Positions 4,369 to 56,377 of a DNA stretch of 64,000 bases are shown one piece after another. The stretch comes from Oscillospiraceae bacterium. GTDB lineage: Bacteria > Bacillota > Clostridia > Oscillospirales > Acutalibacteraceae. Below the pieces are notes generated by a model. That model worked only from the letters and a program-made list of their open reading frames with translations. It made no database searches and was not told the origin of the DNA. The stretch is from contig JAISBE010000012.1 in assembly GCA_031266365.1 (NCBI GenBank), positions 445 through 64,444 on the forward strand, written 5' to 3'. Each line of letters begins with the position of its first letter. Positions within the stretch are counted from its first letter, which is position 1. A program made the translations under genes and the position numbers.

Positions 4369-6645
4369 ATGAAAAAAGCTGATATCAATCAGTATGGAAA
4401 TTTAAAAAATAGTTCACTTGCGGACGTAAAATATAAAAAAGAAAATAATTTTAAAATTATTTTTAAGCTAATTCTTACTGTTTTTACAATCTTCGCAACC
4501 ACCGGCATGATTGTTGGGATGTATCTTATTTCCTATATTATCAGCATGTCTAGCGAAAAAATCGATTACGATTTAAGGGCAATGAAATTGCAATTAACAA
4601 GCCAAATTTATATACTAGACGAAAACGGAAAATTTAAAGAATACGATAGCGTTCATCACTCAGAGGATAGAATTTGGGTAGATTTCAAAGATATACCAGA
4701 CGCGATGAAAAACGCTATCATTGCTATTGAAGATAAGCGCTTTGAAAGCCACAATGGCGTGGATTGGATACGCACTTTCAGCGCAGTGTCACACTTATTT
4801 GGTAGCGGAAGTAGTTACGGCGGTTCCACTATAACTCAACAAACTATAAAAAATTTAACTGAAGATAACGAAGTGAGTCTAACAAGAAAAATTCGAGAAA
4901 TATTTAGATCTATAAACATGGAAAACGAATATTCAAAAGATGAGATATTAGAAGCTTATTTAAATGCTGTTAATTTTGGAAGCGGCTGTCGCGGGGTTCA
5001 GGCATCGGCAAAAAATTATTTCAACAAAGATATCTCCGAATGTTCAATAGCTCAATGTGCAGCTATAGCGGGAATTACTAAAAATCCCGCAGCTTATAAC
5101 CCGTTAATTTTTCCAGAAAATAACAAAAAGCGTCGAGAACTTGTTTTGTCTGAAATGTACAATCAGGGAAAAATTTCAAAACAAGAATATGACGACGCAA
5201 TTGAAGAATCAAAAAATATGACATTTGGTAAAGTAAGCGATACCGATGAAGAAGAAGTCAGTGAAAAATGGATTTACAACTGGTATGTAGACGCCATGTT
5301 AAAAGAGGTAGTTGATGACTTAAATACCCGTCTCGAGCTTGGAAGACAATCTGCATGGGAAATGCTTTGTAGGCAAGGTCTAAAAATTTATTGTGCCATG
5401 GATGAAAACACCCAAAAGGCGGCGGAGTCTGTGATTCGCGATCCTAATATTATGCCAAAAGATGAAAAATTAGAGTTAGGATATATCATGATGGATTTCG
5501 ATGGAAGAGTACTTGCGAGTTTGGGAAGCAGAGAGGAAAAGAAAGGAAATTTATGGAGAGATCGCGCAAACGATAGGCAAAGCAGACGTCAGCCCGGCTC
5601 TGCAATAAAACCTTTAGGCGTATATGCCCCTGCAATAGATTCGGAACTATGCCACTATTCTTCGTTTATAAGCAATGAAAAAATTCCAAATTTTTATGGA
5701 GCTGGAAATCCCGGGCCCAATAATTGGGATAACAGTTCAGGCGGAGAAGTTTTCACTTTTAAAGCAATATCGAGATCCTTAAATATTCCAGCTGTCCGAA
5801 CGTTAGAAAAATTAACATCCATGAAAAGTTACGAATTTTTAACCAAAAAGCTTGGATTTACCAGCTTAGAGGAAAGCGATATTCACGCTCCTGTGGCGCT
5901 TTCACTCGGCGGAATGGCTCATGGAGTTACACCAAAAGAAATGACAGCTGGTTTTCAAATATTTGGCAACGGTGGAATTTACCATAAACCTTACAAATAT
6001 TTTTACATAACAGACAGAAATGGTAAAGTTTTACTCGATAATAGAAACCAAGTTGGCATTCAAGCAATAAAACCAGAAACCGCCACTATTATGAACCGCT
6101 TGCTCACAAACGTTGTGCAATCCGGAACAGGTACAAGTGCAGCCATTTCCGGTTGGCGCATTGGAGGAAAAACTGGAACAACCAATAACGATAACGATGC
6201 TTATTTCGTTGGTTTTTCTCCCTATAGTGTTGCAGGATTATGGCTAGGGTATGAACCGGCCAAAAAAATCAATCAAGCAACAACCACCACCAATATCATC
6301 TGGCGTGAAATAATGAAAAAATTTCTATCCGGCAAACCTTCAAAAGATTATCCCTCGAATTCAAATGTCGTTGAGCGATCTTTTTGCGCAACAACTGGTA
6401 AAATTGCAACCAACAGGTGTCCTATAGGTGGGACTGGATATTACGCTTCAAGCAACATGCCGCCGGTCTGTAATTTACACCCCGGGGATTATTCTACTCC
6501 CCCCAAAAAAGAAGAACCTTCTCCTCAAGAGCCAAAAGAACCAGAAAACCCAGCTCCGGGAAACGATGCAGAACAACCCAATATAGCTCAACCGAATGGA
6601 GAAAACAATACTGAAAATACCCAACAAAACCAAGCAGAGCAGTAG
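4369..6645 (+). CDS. class A penicillin-binding protein (transglycosylase/transpeptidase, PBP1A family)
   Basis: GT51 motifs EDKRFESHNGVD, GGSTITQQ and RKIRE. Transpeptidase motifs SAIKP (SxxK) and KTGT. N-terminal TM anchor and a low-complexity P/E/N/Q C-terminal tail. Confidence 0.9.
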   Translation: MKKADINQYGNLKNSSLADVKYKKENNFKIIFKLILTVFTIFATTGMIVGMYLISYIISMSSEKIDYDLRAMKLQLTSQIYILDENGKFKEYDSVHHSEDRIWVDFKDIPDAMKNAIIAIEDKRFESHNGVDWIRTFSAVSHLFGSGSSYGGSTITQQTIKNLTEDNEVSLTRKIREIFRSINMENEYSKDEILEAYLNAVNFGSGCRGVQASAKNYFNKDISECSIAQCAAIAGITKNPAAYNPLIFPENNKKRRELVLSEMYNQGKISKQEYDDAIEESKNMTFGKVSDTDEEEVSEKWIYNWYVDAMLKEVVDDLNTRLELGRQSAWEMLCRQGLKIYCAMDENTQKAAESVIRDPNIMPKDEKLELGYIMMDFDGRVLASLGSREEKKGNLWRDRANDRQSRRQPGSAIKPLGVYAPAIDSELCHYSSFISNEKIPNFYGAGNPGPNNWDNSSGGEVFTFKAISRSLNIPAVRTLEKLTSMKSYEFLTKKLGFTSLEESDIHAPVALSLGGMAHGVTPKEMTAGFQIFGNGGIYHKPYKYFYITDRNGKVLLDNRNQVGIQAIKPETATIMNRLLTNVVQSGTGTSAAISGWRIGGKTGTTNNDNDAYFVGFSPYSVAGLWLGYEPAKKINQATTTTNIIWREIMKKFLSGKPSKDYPSNSNVVERSFCATTGKIATNRCPIGGTGYYASSNMPPVCNLHPGDYSTPPKKEEPSPQEPKEPENPAPGNDAEQPNIAQPNGENNTENTQQNQAEQ

Positions 6646-6743
6646 CATCTAGGATAATTACGTTTTTATCTTTACACAAGAAAATCACAAATTAATTTTA
6701 ATTTAAAATCCTTAATTGTTTTAAATAAGGGGGCATAATAATC

Positions 6744-7934
6744 ATGAGTTTAATTGTTCAAAAATTTGGTGGCAGTTCTGTTGCAAATACCAACCTTTTA
6801 CTCAATGCAGCAAAAAAAATTATAAAAAAATATAATGAAGGCAATGAAGTTATCGCTGTGGTTTCTGCTCAAGGGAACACAACAGACAAGCTAATCGCAG
6901 AAGCCTTTAAAATTAGCCCTCTTGCATCAAACCGAGAACTGGACGTCTTACTTTCGTCCGGAGAGCAAGTTTCTATTGCACTTCTCTCAATTGCCATCAA
7001 AAAATTGGGATTTCCCGTAATTTCGCTGCTCGGTTGGCAAGCCGGGTTTAAAACAGACTCAAATTTTGGCAATGCACAAATTAAAAAAGTTGAAACAGAA
7101 AGAATAAAAAAAGAAATCGAAAAGAAAAATATTGTAATTGTCGCAGGATTTCAAGGTATAGACAGTTACGGCGATATCACAACTTTCGGTAGAGGCGGTT
7201 CAGATACAAGTGCGGTTGCGATTGCCGCCGCTATGAAAGCTAATATTTGCCAGATTTATACCGATGTAGAAGGCGTATACACCGCTGATCCACACAAAAT
7301 CCCTGATGCGCGAAAATTATCAGAAATTTCTTATGATGCCATGTTAGAAATGGCTTCTTTAGGGGCACAAGTTTTAAACAGTCGATCAGTTGAGATTGCC
7401 AAAAAGTATAAAGTTAAACTCGAAGTATTATCTAGTTTAACAGATGTTCCCGGCACTATTGTAAGGGAAATGGCAAAAAATGACGAGATAGTAATCACCG
7501 GAATAACCGGCGATAAAGATGTTGCTATAATAGAAATATTAGAAATGCCCGATAAAAAAGGAGAAAATTTAAGAATTTTTTCTAAATTATCGGATCTTGG
7601 CATCAATACCGATGTTACACAGCAATTTATAAATGATAAAACAACAAAAAACCCTACCTTCGCTGTAAAAAGAAATATCTTGCTCGAAACACTTAACATA
7701 CTTAAAAGCTGTTGTGTAAACAAAATATTTTACGACTCTAAAATAGCTAAAGTTTCCCTAATTGGCGCTGGATTGAAATTGCACCCTGAGGTTGCGGCAG
7801 CGGTTTTTGAAACACTAAATAAAGCCAAAATTAAAGTACATCTAAGTGAGACAAGTGAGACGAAAATATCTGTATTTATCGACAATCAATACATGGATAA
7901 GGCTGTTAAAATTTTGCATGATAAATTTTTTTGA
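6744..7934 (+). CDS. lysC: aspartate kinase
   Basis: 396 aa. N-terminal VQKFGGSSV, and GFQG...GRGGSDTSAV. The C-terminal part is consistent with ACT domains. Confidence 0.88.
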   Translation: MSLIVQKFGGSSVANTNLLLNAAKKIIKKYNEGNEVIAVVSAQGNTTDKLIAEAFKISPLASNRELDVLLSSGEQVSIALLSIAIKKLGFPVISLLGWQAGFKTDSNFGNAQIKKVETERIKKEIEKKNIVIVAGFQGIDSYGDITTFGRGGSDTSAVAIAAAMKANICQIYTDVEGVYTADPHKIPDARKLSEISYDAMLEMASLGAQVLNSRSVEIAKKYKVKLEVLSSLTDVPGTIVREMAKNDEIVITGITGDKDVAIIEILEMPDKKGENLRIFSKLSDLGINTDVTQQFINDKTTKNPTFAVKRNILLETLNILKSCCVNKIFYDSKIAKVSLIGAGLKLHPEVAAAVFETLNKAKIKVHLSETSETKISVFIDNQYMDKAVKILHDKFF

Positions 7935-13915: not shown

Positions 13916-14500
13916 ATGAACATTAATTTTCGTAAACTCAAAAACTCTTTATTAAGCCTCGGCTTAAGTGCTACCTTATTTTCTGCCTCCGGCCTAAAGA
14001 CGCTTGCTGAGCCGTTATCCCTGAGCTTTGTCAAGCAGCAGCTGAAGGACCTCCTCCCTGCCCCGACGGCGCCCCCTGATGAAATGGCGCGTGGTGTGCG
14101 TCTGCTACTAACGCGTGCGAGCCTATTTACACATGAGGGAGCCCAGCGGCAGGTTAAAGATGCCGATGGTCGAATCAGTAAGACGGAGGAGTGGGCTTCC
14201 GTTGTACGCTTGAATGCCGACACTTTCTACGTTAATACGCATAACTTAGCGAACGTGGCTGGAGTCGCGAAGTCTACGGTGAACGCGCGTCTGAAGGCAG
14301 CAAAAGTAATAAGAGTTTTTCTTACAGAGTCAGATATACGCTATGTGGAGGGGATAGTACCGACTCGCATCAGATCGAACTATTGGAGAAAAAGCACTCT
14401 AACGGCGGCTCCACCCATAGCGGCGCATGCACTGTTTCCCGACAAAGACTCTTCTGATGGCACAACTTGGGAGGAACAATTCGATTTAGCTGATGAATGA
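13916..14500 (+). CDS. cassette protein U1: Sec signal peptide plus GC-rich variable domain
   Basis: AAAGGAAG RBS 7 nt before the ATG. MNINFRKLKNSLLSLGLSATLFSASGLKTLA|EP. The upstream ATG is ACG or out of frame in sister cassettes, so the second ATG is used. Acidic aromatic tail TWEEQFDLADE. Confidence 0.7.
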   Translation: MNINFRKLKNSLLSLGLSATLFSASGLKTLAEPLSLSFVKQQLKDLLPAPTAPPDEMARGVRLLLTRASLFTHEGAQRQVKDADGRISKTEEWASVVRLNADTFYVNTHNLANVAGVAKSTVNARLKAAKVIRVFLTESDIRYVEGIVPTRIRSNYWRKSTLTAAPPIAAHALFPDKDSSDGTTWEEQFDLADE

Positions 14501-14521
14501 GCTGTGAGATGAAAACATCTT

Positions 14522-14542
14522 AATCGGGGGTACCCCCCGATT
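14522..14542 (+). repeat. cassette 3' palindrome (hairpin) after U1
   Basis: AATCGGGGGTACCCCCCGATT, a near-perfect inverted repeat. It is followed by the conserved CTTCACACCCCACCGCATTTAATTTAAATAAAAAATT. Confidence 0.75.
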
Positions 14543-14614
14543 CTTCACACCCCACCGCATTTAATTTAAATAAAAAATTAATATAATTTATAAAAACACG
14601 AAAGGAAGTTACCC

Positions 14615-15274
14615 ATGAACCTTAATTTTCGTAAACTTAAAAACTCCTTATTAAGCCTCGGCTTAAGCGCTACCTTATTTTGCACCGCCGGCCTGGCCGG
14701 AGTGCCCGCTTCAGCTAACGACCCGAACCCAGAGGCAACCAGTGCGTACCAACGGAAGGTAGTAACTATGCAGTACCGGAGCACAGCCGAGGGCGGAGAG
14801 TTTGCCAACCTGTCCGACTGGTTACACCAAGTCACAGACATGTCCACAGAGGCCAGAGAACAGGGAGCTGAGGTGGGCATATACTGGCAGGTCCGCGACC
14901 AGGTACTGTGCCTGAACTCGCAGATCCTGGCGGGCGATTTAGGTATTAAAGTTAACACGCTGAATAAACGACTGAAAGGGACATGCGGTCCGGCGCAGCC
15001 CTTAACGGTAGCACAAGTGAAAGAGATGGGGTACGCGAAACCAAGGAGCTGGTGCAAACGCGCTTTTTGGCCCAAGCGCACGACCCGCATGGTCGAGCCG
15101 CCGACGGCAGCGTGGATTCAAGGACCCGGGGCAAGCCTCGGCCGCCTGGCGACCGCCATCGCTGCCCCTGCACCGGCGCAACCGTTAGCCCCTCCGGTCT
15201 GTATCAGCCCTCAAATTGAAGATCATGATACGGACGGTTTGAATGACTGGGATCCTGACTTTGGATGGACTTGA
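14615..15274 (+). CDS. cassette protein U2
   Basis: MNLNFRKLKNSLLSLGLSATLFCTAGLAGVPASA|NDP. GC-rich body. Tail DWDPDFGWT. Closest paralogue is U3. Confidence 0.7.
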   Translation: MNLNFRKLKNSLLSLGLSATLFCTAGLAGVPASANDPNPEATSAYQRKVVTMQYRSTAEGGEFANLSDWLHQVTDMSTEAREQGAEVGIYWQVRDQVLCLNSQILAGDLGIKVNTLNKRLKGTCGPAQPLTVAQVKEMGYAKPRSWCKRAFWPKRTTRMVEPPTAAWIQGPGASLGRLATAIAAPAPAQPLAPPVCISPQIEDHDTDGLNDWDPDFGWT

Positions 15275-15288
15275 CCCTGAAAAATCTT

Positions 15289-15309
15289 AATCAAGGGTAC
15301 CCCCCGATT
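15289..15309 (+). repeat. cassette 3' palindrome after U2 (imperfect)
   Basis: AATCAAGGGTACCCCCCGATT, in the same position relative to the conserved tail. Confidence 0.65.
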
Positions 15310-15381
15310 CTTCACACCCCACCGCATTTAATTTAAATAAAAAATCATTATAATTTATAAAAACACGAAAGGAAGTTACCC

Positions 15382-16071
15382 ATGAACCTTAATTTTCGTA
15401 AACTTAAAAACTCCTTATTAAGCCTCGGCTTAAGTGCTACCTTATTTTGCACCGCCGGCCTGGCCGGCTTACCCGTTTTCGCTACCGACCCGAACCCAGA
15501 GGAAACCAGGGCGTACCGACAGACTGTAAAAGCTATGCTGTACCCGCGCACACCCACGGGCGTACAGTTTGACACCATGCAAGACTGGTTACACGGAGTA
15601 GCGGACGTGTCCACAGTGGCCAGAGCGCGTGGGGCTGTGGTGGGCATATTCTGGCGGGTCCCAGGTAGGGAATTGTGCCTAAACAAGCATATCATGGCGA
15701 GCGATTAAGGTCTTAAAGTTAACACGGTGGCGAAACGACTGAAACTGGTTAGATCCGGTCCGGCGCGTCGCTTACCGGTAGAACTCGCGATAATGCTGGG
15801 TGGCGCGAACCCAACGCACTGGTCCCGCCGCGCTTTCTGGCACGAGCCAAGACCCCCCGTGGGCGTGACACAAGCGGCAAACGGGGAAGCACTAGCCGAG
15901 GCGAGCCAAGGCCCGCTCGCGATACCACGAGCGGCCAATGCATCGGCAACAGCGTTAGCCCTTCCTGCCTCTACCAGCCCTGAAATTCAAAATTATGACT
16001 GGGATCTCGACGATACACCCTTTAGAGAGTACCCTGACCCGCATGACGACGCGGACGACTTTTGGCGCTGA
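15382..16071 (+). pseudogene. cassette U3, interrupted by one in-frame TAA (15706-15708)
   Basis: The two track ORFs (15382..15708 and 15727..16071) are in the same frame. U2 has GAT TTA GGT ATT AAA GTT AAC where U3 has GAT TAA GGT CTT AAA GTT AAC. Confidence 0.65.
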
Positions 16072-16167
16072 GCCGGGTCGGTCACGGCACCCTGGTGGAC
16101 TAACTGCGTAAGTGCCGGCAGCACGCCCAACCACCGGACTGGGATAAGCTTGAAAATGAAACATCGT

Positions 16168-16189
16168 AATCGGGGGTACCCCCACGATT
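16168..16189 (+). repeat. cassette 3' palindrome after U3
   Basis: AATCGGGGGTACCCCCACGATT. Confidence 0.7.
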
Positions 16190-16262
16190 CTTCACACCCC
16201 ACCGCATTTAATTTAAATAAAAAATTATTATAATTTATAAAAACATGAAAGGAAGTATACCC

Positions 16263-16982
16263 ATGAACATTAATTTTCGTAAACTCAAAAACTCTTTATT
16301 AAGCCTCGGCTTAAGCGCCACCTTATTTTGCACCGCCGGCCTGGCCGGCTTACCCGTTTTCGCTACCGACCCGATACGCGAAGTGGCCTTAAGGGAATGC
16401 GTTATCGGAATCGGAAGGGGGGCAATCAGGTACAGCCGCGGAAAGGCTAGGGCCGTATTTGTAGCTATTGTGAATCAACTAGTAAACCTTGCGTCAGTGG
16501 CTGCCAAGCGTGGAGTCATCGGTCCAGATGGACGGCCAGTGCCGCTACATTGCGTACTACCACTAATCCCGCTGGGACGCGGCGCATTCATGGTGCATAC
16601 ACAACTGCTAGCTGAGGTCGCGAAGGTAAGTAAATCTTCGGTTAACTCAAACTGGTGCGCAATAGGTTATAACAGCTCAACGCCGACTCCCGCGCAGATA
16701 GCACAACTAGAGATGCAACCACACCAGTGTCGGAGCTGGACGGTCCGCACGCTACGGACACCCGAATCTACCGGCGAACCGGAGGTCCACGCCGACGAGG
16801 CGCACACGGATGCTCCGACAAGCACACCAGGGGGATCCTTCGCGCAGGCTGACTGGCCGGAACTCTCGCTACCCGAGCAACCCGAGGGCTACGACCCATT
16901 AGCAGACACAGACACTGGGAGCGGCGAATACGGCTTTTTTGAACGTGACGTCGCTACCGAAGACCAAAGGTGGCTTTTTTGA
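16263..16982 (+). CDS. cassette protein U4
   Basis: MNINFRKLKNSLLSLGLSATLFCTAGLAGLPVFA|TDPIRE... Paralogue of U5. Contains ...SKSSVNSNWCAIGY...CRSWTVRTL. Confidence 0.7.
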   Translation: MNINFRKLKNSLLSLGLSATLFCTAGLAGLPVFATDPIREVALRECVIGIGRGAIRYSRGKARAVFVAIVNQLVNLASVAAKRGVIGPDGRPVPLHCVLPLIPLGRGAFMVHTQLLAEVAKVSKSSVNSNWCAIGYNSSTPTPAQIAQLEMQPHQCRSWTVRTLRTPESTGEPEVHADEAHTDAPTSTPGGSFAQADWPELSLPEQPEGYDPLADTDTGSGEYGFFERDVATEDQRWLF

Positions 16983-17065
16983 CCTTGCCGTCGCTCCCGA
17001 CGACCCTTGGCCTGTACTTAGTCCCAGTGGTTCAAAAGAACCCTTTTAAATGAAAAATTGTAATC

Positions 17066-17079
17066 GGGCGCTCTCGCCC
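17066..17079 (+). repeat. cassette 3' hairpin after U4 (different sequence, same position)
   Basis: GGGCG-CTCT-CGCCC followed by ATTTTTCACACCCAACCGCATTTAATTTAAAT. The stem sequence is replaced but pairing is preserved, and a T-run follows. Confidence 0.6.
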
Positions 17080-17155
17080 ATTTTTCACACCCAACCGCAT
17101 TTAATTTAAATAAAAAATTATTATAATTTACAAAAACATGAAAGGAAGTATACCC

Positions 17156-17884
17156 ATGAACCTTAATTTTTGTAAACTTAAAAGCTCCTTATTAAGCCTC
17201 GGCTTAAGTGCCACCTTATTTTGCTCCAGCCTGGCCTGCTTCCACGTTTCCGCTAACGACCCGATACGCGAAAAGGATTTAAGGGCACAACTTATCGAAC
17301 TCAAAAGAAAAGCCGCGCCAGTCAAGTATCAGCGCGGACGGGCTGGGGCCGTATTTGCAGCTCTTTGGAATGAACTACTAACAATTGCGAATGAGGCTGC
17401 CGCGAGTGGAGTCATAGATGAAGCCGGAAGGCCAGTGCCGCTGCATACCGTACTATCACTAATACGGCTGGGGCCGACAGCATTCGCAATGAACACACCC
17501 GCCCTAGCGAAGGACTTAGGGAGAAGTAAATCTTGTGTTAACAACCAGTTGTGGAAACTAGGTTATACCAGCTCTCCGCTGACTACCGAGCATATGGCAC
17601 AACTAGGGATGCGACCACACCAGTGTCGGAGCTGGACGGTCCGCACGCTCTGCCCACCCGAAAATACCGGCGAAGATGGGGGCTCTGCCGACGAGGCACT
17701 CACGAGTAATCCCCCAGAATCAACCGGCGACTCCTTCGCGCCCGCTGAATGGCCGAGACTATCGCTACCCGATCGACCCGCGGGCGCGGGCCGCTTGGCA
17801 CTCACAGACACTGGGCGAGGCGACGGTGGCTTTTTTGCCCTTGACCATGCTCCAGCCGGCGCCAGCTGGTTTGACCTTTACTGA
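17156..17884 (+). CDS. cassette protein U5
   Basis: MNLNFCKLKSSLLSLGLSATLFCSSLACFHVSA|NDPIRE... Contains LAKDLGRSKSCVNNQLWKLGY...CRSWTVRTL. Tail ASWFDLY. Confidence 0.7.
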   Translation: MNLNFCKLKSSLLSLGLSATLFCSSLACFHVSANDPIREKDLRAQLIELKRKAAPVKYQRGRAGAVFAALWNELLTIANEAAASGVIDEAGRPVPLHTVLSLIRLGPTAFAMNTPALAKDLGRSKSCVNNQLWKLGYTSSPLTTEHMAQLGMRPHQCRSWTVRTLCPPENTGEDGGSADEALTSNPPESTGDSFAPAEWPRLSLPDRPAGAGRLALTDTGRGDGGFFALDHAPAGASWFDLY

Positions 17885-17904
17885 GCTTAGGAATGAAAAA
17901 TCTT

Positions 17905-17925
17905 AGCCGAGGGTTACCCCCGATT
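17905..17925 (+). repeat. cassette 3' palindrome after U5 (degenerate)
   Basis: AGCCGAGGGTTACCCCCGATT followed by CCTCACACCCCACTGCATTTAATTTAAAT. Confidence 0.55.
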
Positions 17926-17997
17926 CCTCACACCCCACTGCATTTAATTTAAATAAAAAATCATTATAATTTATAAAAACACGAAAGGAAGTTACAC

Positions 17998-18603
17998 ATG
18001 AACCTTAATTTTCGTAAATTCAAAAGCTCTTTATTAAGCCTCGGCTTAAGCGCTACCGTATCTTTCGGCTTCGGCCTACCCGGCTTCCACGCTTTCGCCA
18101 TTGATCCAATACCGACCACGCGGGGCGCCTGGAGGGCCGCGTTGTTGAGCGTGAGGCGATACCACGAGCCGGGCAAGAGAGGCAACCACGCTGAAAAGGC
18201 CGATACCAAAGCGCGGTGGCTTAGGCTGGTGGCATTGGCGCCCGGGCCCGAAGGCAATGAAATACTTGGTGCGGACACAGGTGTCGTAGAGCTCGGTGAC
18301 GGGTTCATCCTAATAAACTCGCGACTAGTGGCAAAGAACTTGGGGCGAAGTAAATCGTGCGTCAACGGACTCCTGGCGGAGCTAACTTACGAAAGACAAC
18401 CGATAGCTGGTGAGCACAGGCAAGTGTTGCGCGGGCTCACGAAAAAACCTCGTGAGTGGTCTCTGCGCAAAATCAAGCCGCAAGGCGCGCAGGACGGGGG
18501 CCGAGCCACGACCCACTCGCCCGATACTAGACCTTTCAACCCTGATCAGGACGGCGCGCCTACATGGGATCCTGTCGATGACTGCGACTTTGATGAGATC
18601 TGA
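17998..18603 (+). CDS. cassette protein U6
   Basis: MNLNFRKFKSSLLSLGLSATVSFGFGLPGFHAFA|IDP... Contains LVAKNLGRSKSCVNGLLAELTY...PREWSLRKI. Tail WDPVDDCDFDEI. Confidence 0.7.
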   Translation: MNLNFRKFKSSLLSLGLSATVSFGFGLPGFHAFAIDPIPTTRGAWRAALLSVRRYHEPGKRGNHAEKADTKARWLRLVALAPGPEGNEILGADTGVVELGDGFILINSRLVAKNLGRSKSCVNGLLAELTYERQPIAGEHRQVLRGLTKKPREWSLRKIKPQGAQDGGRATTHSPDTRPFNPDQDGAPTWDPVDDCDFDEI

Positions 18604-18611
18604 ACAGTCTT

Positions 18612-18633
18612 AATCGGGGGTACCCCCACGATT
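18612..18633 (+). repeat. cassette 3' palindrome after U6
   Basis: AATCGGGGGTACCCCCACGATT followed by CTTCACACCCCACCGCATTTAATTTCAAC. Confidence 0.7.
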
Positions 18634-18705
18634 CTTCACACCCCACCGCATTTAATTTCAACAGAAAATTGTTATAATTTATAAAAAAATGAAAGGAAGT
18701 TACAC

Positions 18706-19860
18706 ATGAAACTTAATTTTCGTAAACTTAAAAACTCCTTATTAAGCCTCGGCTTAAGTGCTACCTTATTTTGCACCGCCGGCCTCGCCGGCTTACCCGT
18801 TTTCGCCGAGGGACCTGCCACAATGGATGAGTGGCGCGAAGCGATACTACGCATCCTGGCCGGGATGCCAGAGTACTCTGCGCGGGGGAAGGACGCAGAA
18901 GCCCGCACATCCACTCTGTTGCACAACCAACTGGCAGTGAGCCGACAAGCACTAGCAAACGGCGTGAAACCACCCCTGCAACCAGTGGAAGGGGGGTTCA
19001 CGATCCACTTGTCGGCATTCGCGAGATACACCGGCATTACCGAACGCCAAGTGGAAAGGCAGCTAGTACGCGGAGGGGCACACTTAGCCGGGCGTGGTGA
19101 TGGCTACTGGAGCTGGTACACACTAGTGTCGGTGGACGACGGTGCAGGTCGCGCGGAAGGCGACATAGTTGAAGCCACCGCCGTTCCTCCCATGGTTGAC
19201 GATCGTGGCCAATTGGAAGTCCAGGTAATAGAAAAATACAAGAAGCTGGAACCAAATTTAGCACTACGCAAGACCGCACGGGGAGAGAACCACCGTCAGT
19301 GGCTGAGAGATTTAATCACGATATCGGAAGAAACCCTCGAGCATGGACAGCCGGACCTAGCGACCGTCGTATTACTGGGCGACGGAACCTCCCTCGCTGT
19401 AAACGCGGGCGCGTTGAGGCGTTTGACTGGTATCTGCAAATCGGCGACGAATTACCGCTTACAAGCCGAGGGACTCCACAAACGCAGCTTAGCGGACGCC
19501 AGCGAGCTGGACGCACGCTTTGGGAGACCATTAGGTTTAGCGGACCGCCGGCACTGGGAAGTCTGGACACCCACCCCGCCCGCTGCGATCGACTATTCTG
19601 AAAAAGATAATCCCTGGTTAACCAGGGCCTTTACGGCCGCGAACTGGTCGCGCCGACCCGGGGAACAACCAGCCATCGCGAGAGGGACGGACGGCAAAAC
19701 CCTATGGGTACGGGTCGAGGAGCTCAGCCGAAAATTAGACACAACGGATCTTGACGTTATGAGGCACCTTGAAAACTTGGGGTACCGGCTCACGGGAACT
19801 AAACAGTGCCGGCTCGCCACAGGTGAAGAAGTGGCATTGACGATCTGGGCACAGCGTTAA
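18706..19860 (+). CDS. cassette protein U7 (largest, about three internal HTH-like repeats)
   Basis: MKLNFRKLKNSLLSLGLSATLFCTAGLAGLPVFA|EGP... 384 aa. Three segments of the form hydrophobic strand, helix, turn, helix: FTIHLSAFARYTGITERQVERQL, SLAVNAGALRRLTGICKSATNYRL and TLWVRVEELSRKLDTTDLDVMRHL. Confidence 0.7.
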   Translation: MKLNFRKLKNSLLSLGLSATLFCTAGLAGLPVFAEGPATMDEWREAILRILAGMPEYSARGKDAEARTSTLLHNQLAVSRQALANGVKPPLQPVEGGFTIHLSAFARYTGITERQVERQLVRGGAHLAGRGDGYWSWYTLVSVDDGAGRAEGDIVEATAVPPMVDDRGQLEVQVIEKYKKLEPNLALRKTARGENHRQWLRDLITISEETLEHGQPDLATVVLLGDGTSLAVNAGALRRLTGICKSATNYRLQAEGLHKRSLADASELDARFGRPLGLADRRHWEVWTPTPPAAIDYSEKDNPWLTRAFTAANWSRRPGEQPAIARGTDGKTLWVRVEELSRKLDTTDLDVMRHLENLGYRLTGTKQCRLATGEEVALTIWAQR

Positions 19861-19988
19861 GAACGAAGTTGCACCCCCCGACGACCGCCCCTGGAGCCAG
19901 CGGTGGTGCCTTGGACCCGGCAAATCAGCTTGGGTTCTTCGAACATCAAGACAACGGAAATTCTCAATGAGCCTTGGCATTAAAAAAT

Positions 19989-20014
19989 CTTACCCGGGGG
20001 TGCATCCTCCGATT
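19989..20014 (+). repeat. degenerate cassette 3' element after U7 (first of two)
   Basis: CTTACCCGGGGGTGCATCCTCCGATT followed by CTTAACATCCCACCACATTTAATTTAAG. Recognisably homologous to the tail block but decayed. Confidence 0.5.
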
Positions 20015-43364: not shown

Positions 43365-43582
43365 TCATCCCCTTTTCTCACAGACGCTGTGGCCCTTAAT
43401 TCATTTTGTCTCATAATAGTTAATATTCTAGCGATATCTTTCTTCACAGCATTTATGCGCATCGGGTTTTCTAATTGATTAACAGCAAGTTGGAATCTCA
43501 AATTAAAAAGTTCGCTTTTTAAATCCTTTAATTTTTTTTGTAACTCCACTAACGTCAATTCCCTAATATCAGAAATTTTCAT
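43361..43582 (-). CDS. rpmC: 50S ribosomal protein L29
   Basis: [40 protein letters not shown]. Confidence 0.93.
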
Positions 43583-51380: not shown

Positions 51381-51771
51381 TATCTAACAAGCTCCCTTTT
51401 CTCGATAAAGCAGGATATGATATTTTTTATTTCCAATTTTTTCCATAATCATAAAAACAATTTATTAAGCAATTACTGATAGCCTTGCTTGCCGCATTTC
51501 TTTTTTAACAAATGCTTTATATATTTATTGTAAATATTTTGATTTCATTGTCAAGCTTTTTAAGCTTAATATTCGCTTTATTCAGCATTATAACTGAAAA
51601 TTAATTTTTTTATAAAATAGCACTTAACATGCTTCTGTTGCAAAAAATTGTAAAAATTAGTCAAGTATTTTTAAATAGAATATTTTTCAAAATTGTCAAA
51701 TTAAGATAATTTTCGCCATAAAATCATGCTATGATTTAACAGTAGTACAGAGTAAAAGGAGTGTTTATATA

Positions 51772-51795
51772 ATGAATACCACGCCACGTAACTAA
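51772..51795 (+). CDS. microcin C-like heptapeptide precursor (MccA-like): MNTTPRN
   Basis: ATG AAT ACC ACG CCA CGT AAC TAA. AAAGGAG RBS ends about 10 nt upstream. C-terminal Asn as in E. coli MccA (MRTGNAN). Lies directly upstream of the MccB-like gene. Confidence 0.7.
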   Translation: MNTTPRN

Positions 51796-51804
51796 AATTT
51801 CAAA

Positions 51805-51832
51805 GCTTCCTGACTATTATATGTCAGGAAGC
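51805..51832 (+). terminator. stem-loop between the heptapeptide ORF and the adenylyltransferase gene (attenuating terminator or stabiliser candidate)
   Basis: GCTTCCTGAC-TATTATAT-GTCAGGAAGC, a perfect 10-bp stem 9 nt after the stop codon. No clear T-tract follows. Confidence 0.55.
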
Positions 51833-51894
51833 CACTTGTAGTTAAATCTCAAAAAAATATTAGGCAATAAGAAAACAAACAGGAGGGCAAATCT

Positions 51895-52962
51895 TTGAGC
51901 ACAAATAAATACATTTTAGCCCCATATGTTGGGGTTGGCATGGATGAAAAAGCGATGTATATGGGATTTGGTTCACTTCAAAAGCTAGTTATTAATAAAA
52001 CAGAACAAACCTTGATTTTGTCGGCTGCTCAAAATTGGTTAGTCCCTAAAACAGAAGATGAAATGATTGAATTTCTGCAAAAAGAAAAATATTTCTCTAA
52101 AGATGATGCTCAAAAGGCAGTAAATTATTTAAAACAAGGCAACTATTTGATGAAAGCTTCCTATGATAAAAATGATCGATATAGCCGACCTGCATTATAT
52201 TATTCTCTATCCGGTGCTGATCCCGATTTAGTTCAGGAAAAATTATCAAATAAACACGTTTTAATTATCGGTTGTGGAGGGATAGGAAACCACATCTCGA
52301 GTGCTCTCGCCACAGCTGGCATAGGAAAATTAACTCTTATCGACTTTGATACTATAGAAATATCCAATTTAACAAGGCAAACCTTATTTACTGAAAAAGA
52401 CGAAGGGAAATCAAAAATAGAAATTTTAAAGCGCGAACTTTTAAAAAGAAATTCCACAATTCAAATCGATATAATTCAAAAAGAATCCGGGCAAAAAGAT
52501 GATATTTTTCCAAAATGCGATTTGGCTGTAGTCTCTGCAGATGGAAATTCAGTTGTTAGCAAATTCAACAGTTATGCTGTAAAAAATAATATACCATACA
52601 TAAACGTTGGATACATTGAAGATATTGCTATTTGGGGACCTTTTGTTATTCCCGGAAAAACTGGCTGTATTGCATGCGCCAAACTCGCTTCAAATACTCC
52701 ATTTGAAATTACATCTGACGAAGACAAAAAGAAATGGGAAATTATAGGAAAAATCAATGAAAGATATCAAGCACCATCTATCTGGGCAACCAACACTTTA
52801 GCCTCTTCTTTAGCCGTGCTGGATATCATACGCTACTTGGGAGAATTCGGTGAAATAATGTCAATCAATCGCAGAATGGGTTTATGGACGCATAATTTAA
52901 AACTGGATTTCCAAGAATGCCCGCCAAACAAGGCTTGTTCTGTCTGCGGCGGGGGTGTATAA
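51895..52962 (+). CDS. MccB-like ThiF/E1-family peptide adenylyltransferase
   Basis: 355 aa with a roughly 110-aa N-terminal extra domain. Rossmann motif HVLIIGCGGIGNHISSALATAGIGKLTLIDFDTIEISNLTRQTLF. YINVGYIEDIAIWGPFVIPGKTGCIAC and terminal CSVCGG. Closely parallels E. coli MccB as I recall it. TTG start after AGGAGGG. Confidence 0.8.
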   Translation: MSTNKYILAPYVGVGMDEKAMYMGFGSLQKLVINKTEQTLILSAAQNWLVPKTEDEMIEFLQKEKYFSKDDAQKAVNYLKQGNYLMKASYDKNDRYSRPALYYSLSGADPDLVQEKLSNKHVLIIGCGGIGNHISSALATAGIGKLTLIDFDTIEISNLTRQTLFTEKDEGKSKIEILKRELLKRNSTIQIDIIQKESGQKDDIFPKCDLAVVSADGNSVVSKFNSYAVKNNIPYINVGYIEDIAIWGPFVIPGKTGCIACAKLASNTPFEITSDEDKKKWEIIGKINERYQAPSIWATNTLASSLAVLDIIRYLGEFGEIMSINRRMGLWTHNLKLDFQECPPNKACSVCGGGV

Positions 52963-52982: not shown

Positions 52983-53630
52983 ATGGATTTATTAAATTTA
53001 GACAAACTTTCAACTGAAGCTAAAATGCTTGATATAACACCGGACCAAACAAGTCTAGGACTGCCAACTGAAGATTTTGCTAAAACTTCGTCTGTTGTCA
53101 CCGGCAGACTAAAATTATTTTCGATAAATTCACCTATAGATGAATCTGTGCGCGACAAAATTTCAAAATTTCGAAATGAATTCACCTCACAGGGCGATAA
53201 CTTAGATGGCTCGGCTGGTTTAGGAGAAGCAGCTTCTCTAGATGAGTGGTTTGCACAAATTCAAGATAATTCCTCGATAGAAACAGTTCGGGAAAATATG
53301 GTTCCCGCCTCCACATATTTGGCTTTAGATCAACACGATCATATAGTCGGCATAGCAGATATTCGCCACAGCTTAAATGATTACCTATTAGCAGCTGGTG
53401 GCCATATTGGCTATAGTGTTAGGCCAAGTCAGCGCAGGCAGGGATACGGAAAGGAAATTTTGTTTTTAGCCTTGTTAAAATGCAGAGAATTAGGAATAAA
53501 TAGGGTTTTACTTTCCTGCGATAGCGAAAACATAGCCAGCGAAAAAATAATACTTGCAAACGGTGGACAATTAGAAAATTGTGTGATTTTTGGTGATAAG
53601 GTTAAAAAGCGCTACTGGATTGAGTTATGA
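52983..53630 (+). CDS. GNAT family N-acetyltransferase (candidate MccE-like self-immunity)
   Basis: AAGGAGGG RBS plus ATG at 52983. GNAT core ...IGYSVRPSQRRQGYGKEILFLALLKCRELGINRVLLSCDSEN. Confidence 0.7.
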   Translation: MDLLNLDKLSTEAKMLDITPDQTSLGLPTEDFAKTSSVVTGRLKLFSINSPIDESVRDKISKFRNEFTSQGDNLDGSAGLGEAASLDEWFAQIQDNSSIETVRENMVPASTYLALDQHDHIVGIADIRHSLNDYLLAAGGHIGYSVRPSQRRQGYGKEILFLALLKCRELGINRVLLSCDSENIASEKIILANGGQLENCVIFGDKVKKRYWIEL

Positions 53631-54445
53631 AACCTGTATTTTTGACCGCAAAAGCTGTCACTTTAAAGAACAGAATAATAACAAACCGCGCATATCCTTT
53701 ATCTTCCTTCACAGAGAGGGTGGTAGGGTCTATATTTTCTATCATCTTCCCTGTATTTATATACTATTTTATATTCAATTGCCATATTTCTGAAAGCTTT
53801 ACAAAGCACGCCAACACGATGGATTATCTCACATATATCGTGCTAGGTCAAAGTGTGAATATAATTGCCGTTTCAACCTTGATGAGCGTTGGACGTTGCA
53901 TGATAACCGAGATTCGCGAAGGGACCTTAGATAATTTTCTGCTTTCTCCAGCTTCACGCATAGGCTATTTTTTAGGCAGCTATGTGGAGCAATTTTTAAG
54001 ATCTATGCTCGAATTCAGCTTGGTGTTGCTTGTGGGTATTACGCTTGGAGCTCGTATTCCAGCAGAAAAAGTTCCAATTATAGCGTTATTTATAATTTTT
54101 ATGTCGCTGGTATGCTTTTGCATGGCTATCCTAATTTCCACAATCATGGTTTTCACTAAAGATACTTATATTACCCAAAATACTTTCTTCTTATTGATCG
54201 ATTTTATCTGCGGGGTTCTTTTCCCGGTTGAATGTTTACCACATTGGCTACAGTATATATCTCAATTAATGCCGCTCACCTCTGCGCTAAAAGCTTTTCG
54301 CAATTGCATTTTAGGCAACCAGTCACTGCAAGATAATTGGATATTATTAGCCTATTCCAGCATTATTAGTATAGTTTTTTTAGCGATTGGTTACTGCTAT
54401 TTTAGAAAATTTGAAAAAAAATTGATAGAAAACATATATGTGTAA
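53627..54445 (+). CDS. ABC-2 type transporter permease
   Basis: 272-aa, roughly 6-TM ORF. Its start overlaps the GNAT stop by 4 nt. Confidence 0.7.
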   Translation: MKPVFLTAKAVTLKNRIITNRAYPLSSFTERVVGSIFSIIFPVFIYYFIFNCHISESFTKHANTMDYLTYIVLGQSVNIIAVSTLMSVGRCMITEIREGTLDNFLLSPASRIGYFLGSYVEQFLRSMLEFSLVLLVGITLGARIPAEKVPIIALFIIFMSLVCFCMAILISTIMVFTKDTYITQNTFFLLIDFICGVLFPVECLPHWLQYISQLMPLTSALKAFRNCILGNQSLQDNWILLAYSSIISIVFLAIGYCYFRKFEKKLIENIYV

Positions 54446-54459
54446 AATTAGGTGAGTTT

Positions 54460-55437
54460 ATGATTCAGGCTAAAAATTTGAATAAAATATATAAGATAAA
54501 AATGAAAAAGCACATCTGGAATCGCAGCGAAATTCAATACAAAGAAGCGGTACATGATATCAGCATGGACATAGAAAAAGGGAAAATAGTGGGATTACTT
54601 GGCGTTAATGGAGCCGGAAAAACCACAACCATCAAGATGCTATCAACCATGATATCTCCGTCTTCTGGGACTATTCATGTTGATGATATCGATGCTGTGA
54701 AATTTCCTTTTCATGCCAAAAAAATAATAAACCTCATAACAGGTGGAGAAAGGAATATTTATTGGAGATTATCCGCTCGAGAAAATTTGGAATATTTCGG
54801 AAGCTTATATGGTTTGACAAAAACTGAATTAAAAAAACGGATAGATTACTGCTTATCGATAGTTAATCTCACCAAAAATGCAGATATTCCTGTGGAAAAA
54901 TATTCCAAAGGCATGAAGCAGAGATTGCAAATTGCACGCGGCTTGATTAATAATCCCAGCTATATATTTTTGGATGAACCCACTTTAGGAATAGATATAT
55001 TGATGGCAAAAGAGTTGAGGGAATACATAAAGAGAATAACTGTGGAGGAAAATAAAGGCGTGCTCCTAACCACCCATTATATCGCGGAAGCAGATGAACT
55101 ATGCAACTATATTTATGTTATAAATAATGGGAAAATAGTCTCAGAGGGCACAGCAAATGATTTAAAAAAGCTATATACTTCAAATTACTGCCTGAACTTT
55201 ATTTTTGATTGCTACAACAAAAGCTTATTTGACGATATCGCCAAGCTTGAAAATATCATCAAAATCGAGCTAAATCCGGAATTACATTCAATAAAATTGA
55301 TCTCTAAAGAAAATTTAATAAAAAAAATCATACAGCTTTCTTCAAATTACAAATGCAACATAAACCAAATCAAAACTGAGGACAGCTTAGAGGCTTCATT
55401 GATGCAAATTTTGAAAGTTGGGAATAGCCATGCGTAA
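54460..55437 (+). CDS. ABC transporter ATP-binding protein (DrrA-like exporter ATPase)
   Basis: Walker A GVNGAGKTTT, signature YSKGMKQR, Walker B IFLDEPT. Confidence 0.85.
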   Translation: MIQAKNLNKIYKIKMKKHIWNRSEIQYKEAVHDISMDIEKGKIVGLLGVNGAGKTTTIKMLSTMISPSSGTIHVDDIDAVKFPFHAKKIINLITGGERNIYWRLSARENLEYFGSLYGLTKTELKKRIDYCLSIVNLTKNADIPVEKYSKGMKQRLQIARGLINNPSYIFLDEPTLGIDILMAKELREYIKRITVEENKGVLLTTHYIAEADELCNYIYVINNGKIVSEGTANDLKKLYTSNYCLNFIFDCYNKSLFDDIAKLENIIKIELNPELHSIKLISKENLIKKIIQLSSNYKCNINQIKTEDSLEASLMQILKVGNSHA

Positions 55438-56227
55438 TTGTTTAATAATATGCTCAGCAGAAGTAAAAAAAGCGCACAGAAACTATTTTAAATCAATTTC
55501 GAATTACTTTTCCCTGCTATTGTGGCCTATACTTTCATTCTTCACCACATATTACACTTATTCCTCTTTTGATAATTATTTTGACCCTGACTTAGCCAAT
55601 AAAACAAATTTTTTTACTTTTCTCATCTTGGGCTGTTTGGGCCACAACTGTTTTTGGGCTATGGTCCAGGGGGGCGTAATGCAAATCAGAGAAGAACGCA
55701 GAAATGGCGCATTAGAAATAATATATTTTTCACCAGCAAACCGATTAGCTTTACTTTACGGCAGAGCTTTAGGTGATTTCATTCAAAACACATGGATGTT
55801 TTTCATTTTTTCGTCAATAATAGTAATGTTGATATCCAAATTTACTTATATCATTTTGTTTAAAATTATTGGCAGTTTTATGGTATTATTACTCACTTCC
55901 ACCATCTGGGGAGGGCTAATTAATTCAATTTGCATCGCCACAAGAGACGCCGGCTTTCTATTCACTATAGGCGAACCCATGAACTTTTTTTCCGCAGTTA
56001 AATTTCCGCTAAAAAACTTACCATTCTGGGCAAGAGCAATTTCGCCGATCTTTCCCTCCACATATTGCATATATATAATTAGAGCGATTTTTATGGGAAA
56101 TAGCGTCAATACTATTAAAATCTTGGAGCTATTAACTTGCCTCTCAATTATAGTGGCAATCACTTATATACTCACTAAAATAACTGAAATTCACAATAGG
56201 AAAACGGGCAATTTACAATTTTATTAA
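55430..56227 (+). CDS. ABC-2 type transporter permease (second)
   Basis: The ATG at 55430 overlaps the ATPase stop (ATGCGTAA). Multi-TM ORF. Confidence 0.7.
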   Translation: MRNCLIICSAEVKKAHRNYFKSISNYFSLLLWPILSFFTTYYTYSSFDNYFDPDLANKTNFFTFLILGCLGHNCFWAMVQGGVMQIREERRNGALEIIYFSPANRLALLYGRALGDFIQNTWMFFIFSSIIVMLISKFTYIILFKIIGSFMVLLLTSTIWGGLINSICIATRDAGFLFTIGEPMNFFSAVKFPLKNLPFWARAISPIFPSTYCIYIIRAIFMGNSVNTIKILELLTCLSIIVAITYILTKITEIHNRKTGNLQFY

Positions 56228-56261: not shown

Positions 56262-56287
56262 AAGCCTTCTGCCAACCCAGAAGGCTT
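56262..56287 (+). terminator. intrinsic terminator after the exporter operon
   Basis: AAGCCTTCTG-CCAACC-CAGAAGGCTT (10-bp stem) followed by a T-rich run TAATTTATGTTCTTT. Confidence 0.7.
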
Positions 56288-56301: not shown

Positions 56302-56377
56302 TGGCGCCTCGTGTAGGGCTCGAACCTACGACACTGCGGTTAACAGCCGCATGCTCTGCCAACTGAGCTAACGAGGC
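56302..56377 (-). tRNA. tRNA-Asn (GTT)
   Basis: Hand-folded cloverleaf. Acceptor GCCTCGT/ACGAGGC, D arm GCTC..GAGC, anticodon arm TGCGG-CTGTTAA-CCGCA, T arm GTAGG-TTCGAGC-CCTAC, encoded CCA. Confidence 0.9.

Follow-up and report, generated by a model that had tools for sequence, protein, structure and literature searches.

The 24-base open reading frame at positions 51772-51795 of the window (i.e. the whole stretch of 64,000 nucleotides of Oscillospiraceae DNA analysed here) is most probably a genuine mccA-type gene, standing first in an operon for a microcin C-like peptide-nucleotide antibiotic. That the mini-gene is real and encodes a seven-residue microcin C-like precursor, MNTTPRN, we consider very probable. 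The succession of Shine-Dalgarno sequence, mini-ORF, hairpin and MccB gene (Table 1) matches the published mccA-hairpin-mccB layout and thereby supports the mccA interpretation. As in the Escherichia coli mcc operon, a strong Shine-Dalgarno sequence precedes a seven-codon frame ending in Asn, and a full-length MccB with its own Shine-Dalgarno sequence follows past a spacer.

An earlier note on this DNA had described the Shine-Dalgarno sequence, its spacer, the mini-ORF and the hairpin, and all four were found again at the same coordinates when the sequence was re-read. The ATG lies 10 nt past the Shine-Dalgarno sequence (spacer TGTTTATATA). When both strands of the window were searched, three ATG-initiated, seven-codon, Asn-terminated ORFs were retrieved, and only the one considered here has a Shine-Dalgarno sequence. 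MNTTPRN carries both Thr3 and Asn7, and in E. coli MccA it is changes at these two positions that impair MccB most (PMC12250964); these two residues are common to the E. coli peptide MRTGNAN and MNTTPRN, which otherwise differ in sequence. In target cells, Pro5 may be an obstacle to aminopeptidases; it is also found in the published MHVTPSN peptides.

Table 1. Features of the putative microcin C-like locus, in order along the window
Feature	Position	Strand	Description	Basis
Candidate extended -10	51727-51735	+	TGCTATGAT	Read by hand; low confidence
Shine-Dalgarno of mini-ORF	51755-51761	+	AAAGGAG	Direct sequence reading
Probable mccA-type precursor gene	51772-51795	+	24 bases, ATG AAT ACC ACG CCA CGT AAC TAA, MNTTPRN	Sequence reading
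Hairpin	51805-51832	+	Perfect 10-bp stem, 8-nt loop	MFE and centroid folds, -17.5 kcal/mol
Shine-Dalgarno of mccB	51881-51886	+	AGGAGG, 8 nt upstream of the TTG start	Sequence reading
mccB homologue	51895-52962	+	355 aa, TTG start	N-terminal peptide-clamp region and ThiF-type nucleotidyltransferase domain, two CxxC pairs
GNAT acetyltransferase	52983-53630	+	Acetyltransf_3/RimL-like	Pfam; PDB 2fck 3.6e-7
ABC-2 permease	53627-54445	+	Presumed exporter subunit	Pfam ABC2_membrane 5e-16; NCBIfam DrrB-type
ABC transporter ATPase (DrrA-type)	54460-55437	+	Presumed exporter subunit	Pfam ABC_tran 1.5e-26; NCBIfam drrA 1e-72 (below curated cut-off)
Second ABC-2 permease	55418-56227	+	Presumed exporter subunit	Pfam ABC2_membrane_3 5e-10
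Terminator-like hairpin	56262-56287	+	Perfect, 10 bp, operon end	Terminator scan and hairpin search

The mccB homologue starts 99 nt downstream of the mini-ORF stop codon, on the same strand. Its product matches the E. coli MccB structure 3h5n over residues 5-353, peptide-clamp region included (E 2e-73), and B. amyloliquefaciens MccB 6om4 equally well (E 5e-73); identity to the E. coli enzyme is roughly 40 %. PaaA, ThiF, MoeB and E1 enzymes match the nucleotide-binding core only, at about 1e-15 to 1e-17 (PaaA 1e-15, ThiF and MoeB about 1e-16), and the Pfam ThiF domain was detected at 1e-39. Among 20 aligned MccB homologues, R161, Q162 and the four Zn-type cysteines C258, C261, C348 and C351 never vary, and at least 90 % of the sequences retain D216, the Asp of the SAD motif. 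This full-length homologue, together with the hairpin lying in the 99-nt spacer, bears out the mccA-like architecture that the earlier note had proposed. The TTG start is backed by the N-terminal alignment with E. coli MccB; a JGI gene call for the same gene (P0001, 340 aa) begins 15 codons later. Apart from this single exact copy, the nearest relative in a large protein collection is 59 % identical. A contig scan of species-representative genomes yielded no MccB orthologue, its only hit being a distant ThiF relative with 39 % identity over the core (L001); that contig belongs to an Acutalibacteraceae MAG.

To compare the locus with other MccB loci, we scanned metagenomes for further ones by means of an alignment of MccBs and examined 40 non-redundant loci in which the MccB homologue is full-length and the upstream sequence long enough. 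A mini-ORF was scored when a frame of 7-8 codons, preceded by a Shine-Dalgarno sequence and terminated by Asn, lay at most 300 nt upstream of mccB. Such frames were present in 33 of the 40 loci and in none of the 40 reverse-complement controls, which reproduces the published rule for these precursors, i.e. a terminal Asn and, in the major MccB clade, seven residues (PMC6495379). Hairpins were sought by stem enumeration (-8 kcal/mol or better, at most 70 nt from the stop codon) and accompany the mini-ORF in 27 of these 33 loci, nearly all of them being more stable than every one of 200 shuffles. E. coli mccA (MRTGNAN) and the terminator hairpin known there were both picked up, which serves as a positive control, as were peptides predicted in the literature, among them MDHSMNN and MISINPFN. 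Two more loci have mini-ORFs with weaker Shine-Dalgarno sequences (MNDGASN and MHVTPSN). By our count of the 33 peptides, 18 begin with MN and 12 have Thr3; those resembling MNTTPRN include MNTTGGN, MNGTTRN, MNGSTRN and MNTRNAN.

The four nearest relatives (L002-L005), whose MccBs are 56-59 % identical to that of the window, all present a strong Shine-Dalgarno sequence, a seven-codon MND[T/R/V]VCN frame and a hairpin upstream of mccB. Their peptides are MNDTVCN, MNDRVCN and MNDVVCN (the latter in two loci), and their mini-ORFs sit 78-244 nt upstream of mccB with the hairpin after them. They thus share with the window the closest MccBs, an orthologous GNAT gene (52 % identity) and the same order of elements, but they differ from it by an MFS pump, a Peptidase_U32 gene and, in one locus, an S66/MccF gene, all three of which the window lacks; their peptides carry Cys6 where the window peptide has Pro5-Arg6. 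As judged from the sequences, the conservation of mini-ORF and hairpin is architectural, and it holds at relatives of no more than 59 % MccB identity. The earlier note had made its reading depend on orthologous loci keeping an Asn-ended short ORF, and this is what the nearest relatives and the wider set display.

Very short ORFs are frequent in AT-rich DNA, and one could imagine that a seven-codon ORF and an inverted repeat with no connection to it came to lie by mere accident upstream of a ThiF-family gene, all the more as the window holds two other seven-codon Asn-ended frames. However, both of these (e.g. MRIGFSN, 43455-43478) are devoid of a Shine-Dalgarno sequence and lie away from the MccB gene. 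A search of the whole window for perfect stems of 10 bp or more with loops of 3-10 nt gave only four, and when the 70 nt downstream of the mini-ORF stop codon were shuffled 200 times, no structure as stable as the one observed arose. Because of this rarity of ORF and hairpin in the window, of the shuffling result and of the difference between the 40 loci and their controls, chance is effectively refuted as an explanation.

A second alternative takes the mini-ORF for a uORF, whose leader peptide would regulate the ThiF-family gene by attenuation and would not be an enzyme substrate. A short ORF and a hairpin upstream of a biosynthetic gene form the classic attenuator layout, and ribosome binding to E. 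coli mccA does control termination (PMC4231749). Nevertheless, the 33 loci keep the features of a substrate (7-8 codons, C-terminal Asn) while the other residues are free, for five bacteria the cognate MccB has been shown to adenylate the heptapeptide MccA in vitro (PMC4010828), and the enzyme possesses a peptide-clamp domain which is absent from housekeeping ThiF/MoeB enzymes (PMC4010828). Nor was a conserved anti-terminator pairing seen. In the window, as long as the right arm of the hairpin has yet to be transcribed, the left arm could pair weakly with the presumed 5' leader, at about -7 to -8 kcal/mol for a 5' end that is itself guessed; with the same proviso, this pairing recalls the upstream attenuation in E. 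coli. We also considered pairing of the mini-ORF Shine-Dalgarno (AGGAG) with CUUCCU of the left arm as an anti-terminator, which would amount to about 5 bp and -8 kcal/mol, and rejected it; by eye, no motif comparable to CUUCCU occurs in the hairpin sequences of the related loci, and the anti-terminator idea is speculation. A purely regulatory role is therefore, on these counter-arguments, very improbable, and we retain the reading of the mini-ORF as a precursor gene.

As regards expression of the precursor gene, a candidate extended -10 element (TGCTATGAT) would, if it acts as a promoter, place the transcript start near 51742, about 30 nt upstream of the ATG, a leader length similar to the 29-nt 5' UTR of E. 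coli mccA (PMC4231749). It has no recognisable -35 partner. A sigma-70 consensus scan upstream of mccA called no promoter on the + strand, TGCTATGAT included, and we graded this element as low confidence for that reason.

The hairpin between mccA and mccB is formed by the arms GCTTCCTGAC (51805-51814) and GTCAGGAAGC (51823-51832), its stem beginning nine bases past the stop codon. Both arms are unique within the window, hence a dispersed repeat is ruled out. The stem has no T-run behind it (tail CACTTGTAGTTAAATCTC), and the terminator scan passed over the site. For leader and spacer, Rfam retrieved no known RNA family, either when the region was searched at a permissive E-value or when gathering thresholds were applied to the entire window. 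The E. coli mccA hairpin has the same 10-bp stem, a nearly identical energy (-17.1 kcal/mol vs -17.5 kcal/mol here) and an equally U-poor tail (ACAAAATTTA), neither of the two being followed by a U-tract. Because stem, energy and tail are so closely alike, the hairpin of the window likely does the same job as that of E. coli.

In E. coli, the mccA-mccB spacer measures 74 bp, vs 99 nt in the window and 84 bp in H. pylori, and its stem-loop ends part of transcription when a ribosome occupies mccA (PMC4231749). This yields a short and highly stable mccA RNA, about 105 nt long, and mccA mRNA exceeds mccB mRNA about 20-fold (PMC4231749). Ribosome-induced termination was demonstrated for H. pylori too, and all mcc-like operons known in 2014 had a long spacer with terminator-like sequences (PMC4231749). 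By analogy, the hairpin of the window is presumed to be a partial terminator and/or a 3'-stabilising stem-loop of a short mccA transcript, and it may work like the E. coli terminator, with an excess of short transcript and limited read-through.

Another mechanism would lead to the same mccA excess, namely that the hairpin marks a processing boundary: a single RNA would be cleaved between mccA and mccB, with no termination, and the stem-loop would shield the mccA fragment from 3'-5' exonucleases. The lack of a U-tract and of a terminator call fits this account, as do the stability of the stem and the finding that transcript stability is credited with most of the mccA excess in E. coli (PMC4231749). 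On the other hand, the equally U-poor E. coli hairpin acts as a terminator both in vivo and in vitro, with no processing product detected there (PMC4231749), and several related loci (L012, L017, L020, L023 and L037) do have U-runs after their hairpins. We thus hold cleavage with stabilisation to be unlikely, though still a serious competitor of partial termination.

Downstream of mccB, the same strand carries a gene for a GNAT acetyltransferase and three genes for an ABC-2 exporter, so that mccA, mccB, GNAT and the exporter genes form one + strand block, most probably a five-protein operon. The start codon of the GNAT gene is uncertain, similarity to its relatives starting at 53148. Its product shares 52 % identity (E 1e-63) with its counterpart in L004, a related mcc cluster, which indicates that this GNAT travels with the present MccB clade. 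We tested it as a homologue of the C-terminal domain of MccE and discarded this assignment (BLASTP against E. coli MccE, E 1.7; no MccE chain among the PDB matches). A function in self-immunity is plausible and is presumed here; since there is no detectable relation to E. coli MccE, it is put forward by analogy and not by family membership. The hairpin at the end of the operon also counts among the four perfect stems of this length in the window.

No homologue of MccC (MFS), MccD, MccE, MccF, Peptidase_U32 or S66 was found anywhere in the window, and no carboxymethylation genes of the kind that go with the cytidine type were seen in the cluster. The flanks consist of chromosomal housekeeping genes, with a divergent ROK kinase gene directly upstream, the S10 ribosomal-protein operon farther to the left, and tRNA-Asn and a dcw cluster (FtsW, MraY, a PASTA-PBP, RsmH) on the right. 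The L2 ribosomal protein shows 78-81 % identity to proteins from MAGs of Oscillospiraceae, Acutalibacteraceae and Clostridia, which places the host among the uncultured Clostridia. A GC-rich block at 14-20 kb was considered as an rRNA operon, but Rfam found none.

Compared with the E. coli system, the locus differs in its equipment as well as in its location. The E. coli operon is plasmid-borne (pMccC7) and includes mccD/mccE-NTD for aminopropylation, MccF and the MFS exporter MccC, whereas the window locus lies on the chromosome of a low-GC Clostridia genome, lacks these genes and exports through an ABC-2 system; moreover, its GNAT shows no detectable relation to the E. coli MccE-CTD. It resembles the minimal mccABC-type clusters of Gram-positive and other bacteria, which likewise combine a Met...Asn heptapeptide, a cognate MccB and an exporter without aminopropyl machinery, and whose validated peptides include L. 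johnsonii MHRIMKN, S. thermophilus MKGTILN, H. pylori MKLSYRN and B. washoensis MDHIGFN (Bantysh et al. 2014). Their exporter, however, is of the MFS type. ABC exporters and GNAT genes had both been recorded as neighbours of MccB-family genes (PMC4010828). MNTTPRN is absent from Table S1 of predicted MccA peptides in Zukher et al. 2019, where the closest peptide by pattern is MHVTPSN (L. iners / Gardnerella), and it has no mention in the searchable full-text literature.

On the basis of the characterised systems (PMC4010828, PMC4231749, PMC6495379, PMC12250964), the following pathway can be proposed. Ribosomes would translate fMet-Asn-Thr-Thr-Pro-Arg-Asn from the strong Shine-Dalgarno sequence and the ATG. 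The hairpin would raise the ratio of substrate to enzyme, by a partial stop after mccA and/or by 3' protection of the ribosome-covered mccA RNA, while the remaining transcription would read through into mccB, where the weaker TTG start would add to the bias. The MccB homologue would bind the formylated heptapeptide through its N-terminal clamp and, using ATP, turn the C-terminal Asn into an aspartamide N-P-bonded to a nucleotide. The nucleotide is most likely AMP, with CMP as a possibility; similarity does not decide between the two because the window enzyme is as close to E. coli MccB, which adenylates, as to B. amyloliquefaciens MccB, which cytidylates. The ABC-2 transporter would then export the peptide-nucleotide, and sensitive cells would import it via a peptide permease. 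There, peptidases would cleave off the carrier and thereby set free a non-hydrolysable aspartyl-nucleotide, the actual inhibitor of aspartyl-tRNA synthetase, while the producer would be protected through acetylation of the processed toxin by the GNAT. What the analysis shows for this locus are the sequence elements, the homology of MccB, the gene content of the cluster and the arrangement kept at homologous loci; chemistry, target, GNAT immunity and all expression behaviour are inferred from analogy with these systems.

A broader reading, which we offer only tentatively, assigns the locus to a separate branch of the microcin C-like systems within the Firmicutes. Such a subclade would be characterised by MN(T/D/G) heptapeptides, a clade-specific non-MccE GNAT, at this locus an ABC-2 exporter, uptake of a Pro-containing carrier by a permease other than YejABEF, a ribosome-dependent terminator that does without a U-tract, and a nucleotide that is perhaps not AMP. 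Under the same reading, the warhead would be aimed at Gram-positive gut or environmental anaerobes and the terminator would work in a Gram-positive host.

This kind of system is already well described, the mccA-hairpin-mccB architecture having been reported as general, and the locus leaves the current understanding of how microcin C-like systems work unchanged. What is new here is the peptide MNTTPRN, an MccB with no relative above 59 % identity, and the combination of MccB, a non-MccE GNAT and an ABC-2 exporter. The locus also illustrates once more that functional genes of 24 nt are invisible to gene callers. The earlier note had anticipated that automated annotation would miss the mini-ORF, and indeed no gene is called at this place in the four nearest relatives; even for the prototype plasmid pMccC7-H22, the PLSDB/RefSeq table contains no mccA and gives a 5'-extended mccB. 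Given its distribution between the MccB loci and their reverse-complement controls, the signature of Shine-Dalgarno sequence, seven codons, terminal Asn and hairpin could be used as an automatic annotation rule. Finally, the MNTTPRN cluster constitutes a concrete candidate for a narrow-spectrum Trojan-horse inhibitor of aspartyl-tRNA synthetase, from an uncultured lineage of Clostridia.

The protein called by JGI for the MccB homologue downstream of the mccA-type mini-ORF (P0001, 340 aa) begins at its internal Met16 (window 51895-51939). When the window protein was aligned to E. coli MccB as well as to 19 homologues, the residues L8, P10, Y11 and G15 proved to be conserved, which supports the upstream TTG at 51895, preceded by an AGGAGG Shine-Dalgarno (SD) sequence, as the predicted start. 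The annotation gap at mccA-type mini-ORFs is illustrated by the prototype microcin C plasmid: in the PLSDB/RefSeq gene table of E. coli plasmid MccC7-H22 (NC_010257.1) no mccA CDS is listed, and mccB is given a 5'-extended start.

Upstream of mccA, the 390-nt region probably holds divergent promoters, since a near-consensus promoter-like site on the minus strand faces the divergent ROK kinase gene. Between this gene and the dcw cluster, the mcc-like operon is the sole plus-strand block, its 3' end directly adjoins a tRNA-Asn gene, and the sign of the GC skew flips across 52-56 kb of the window; on these grounds, the operon may be an island inserted beside a tRNA gene. The identity of this tRNA is curious, Asn being the key residue of the mccA-type precursor.

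Features located in the window and in the compared loci
Feature	Sequence	Coordinates	Strand	Remark
tRNA-Asn(GTT) gene	window	56302-56377	-	directly adjoins operon 3' end
Promoter-like site TTGACA-16-TACAAT	window	51527-51554	-	near-consensus, 11/12 matches
Seven-codon Asn-terminated ORF (MRIGFSN)	window	43455-43478	+	8-bp stem downstream
Three tandem paralogous ORFs	window	16245-16982, 17138-17884, 17998-18603		weak Pfam IBD (PF10416) match
mcc cluster	L002	3301-6877		nearest MccB relative
mcc cluster	L003	825-4909		nearest MccB relative
mcc cluster	L004	5733-11090		nearest MccB relative
mcc cluster	L005	823-4377		nearest MccB relative
mccB as annotated (PLSDB/RefSeq)	L084 (NC_010257.1)	6071-7198		5'-extended start, directly at mccA end

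Elsewhere in the window, the ORF encoding MRIGFSN was taken as a chance occurrence, because it has neither an SD sequence nor an MccB-like neighbour. The block at 14000-20000 looks foreign (52-56% GC versus roughly 35% for the contig); an rRNA operon was ruled out there by the lack of any Rfam match. It contains the three paralogous ORFs, which show only a weak match to Pfam IBD, a Trichomonas initiator-binding domain, and several further ORFs without a family.

At three loci with a distant MccB homologue (L044, L045 and L046; 32% identity), an ORF located ~130-280 nt before the MccB-homologue match (at 3001 in L044), with no SD sequence detected, encodes tandem repeats (...ANERNIANERNIANERNIANERNIAN, then stop) in which Asn closes every unit. 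This ORF may represent a precursor with multiple cores, or no more than a tandem repeat in the DNA. The nearest relatives, the metagenomic clusters L002-L005, encode Cys-containing heptapeptides, MND[T/R/V]VCN, and L004 additionally carries an S66/MccF gene and a GNAT gene. In each of the four, a Peptidase_U32-family gene stands right behind the MFS exporter gene and may point to a step of modification or immunity beyond those described for microcin C.
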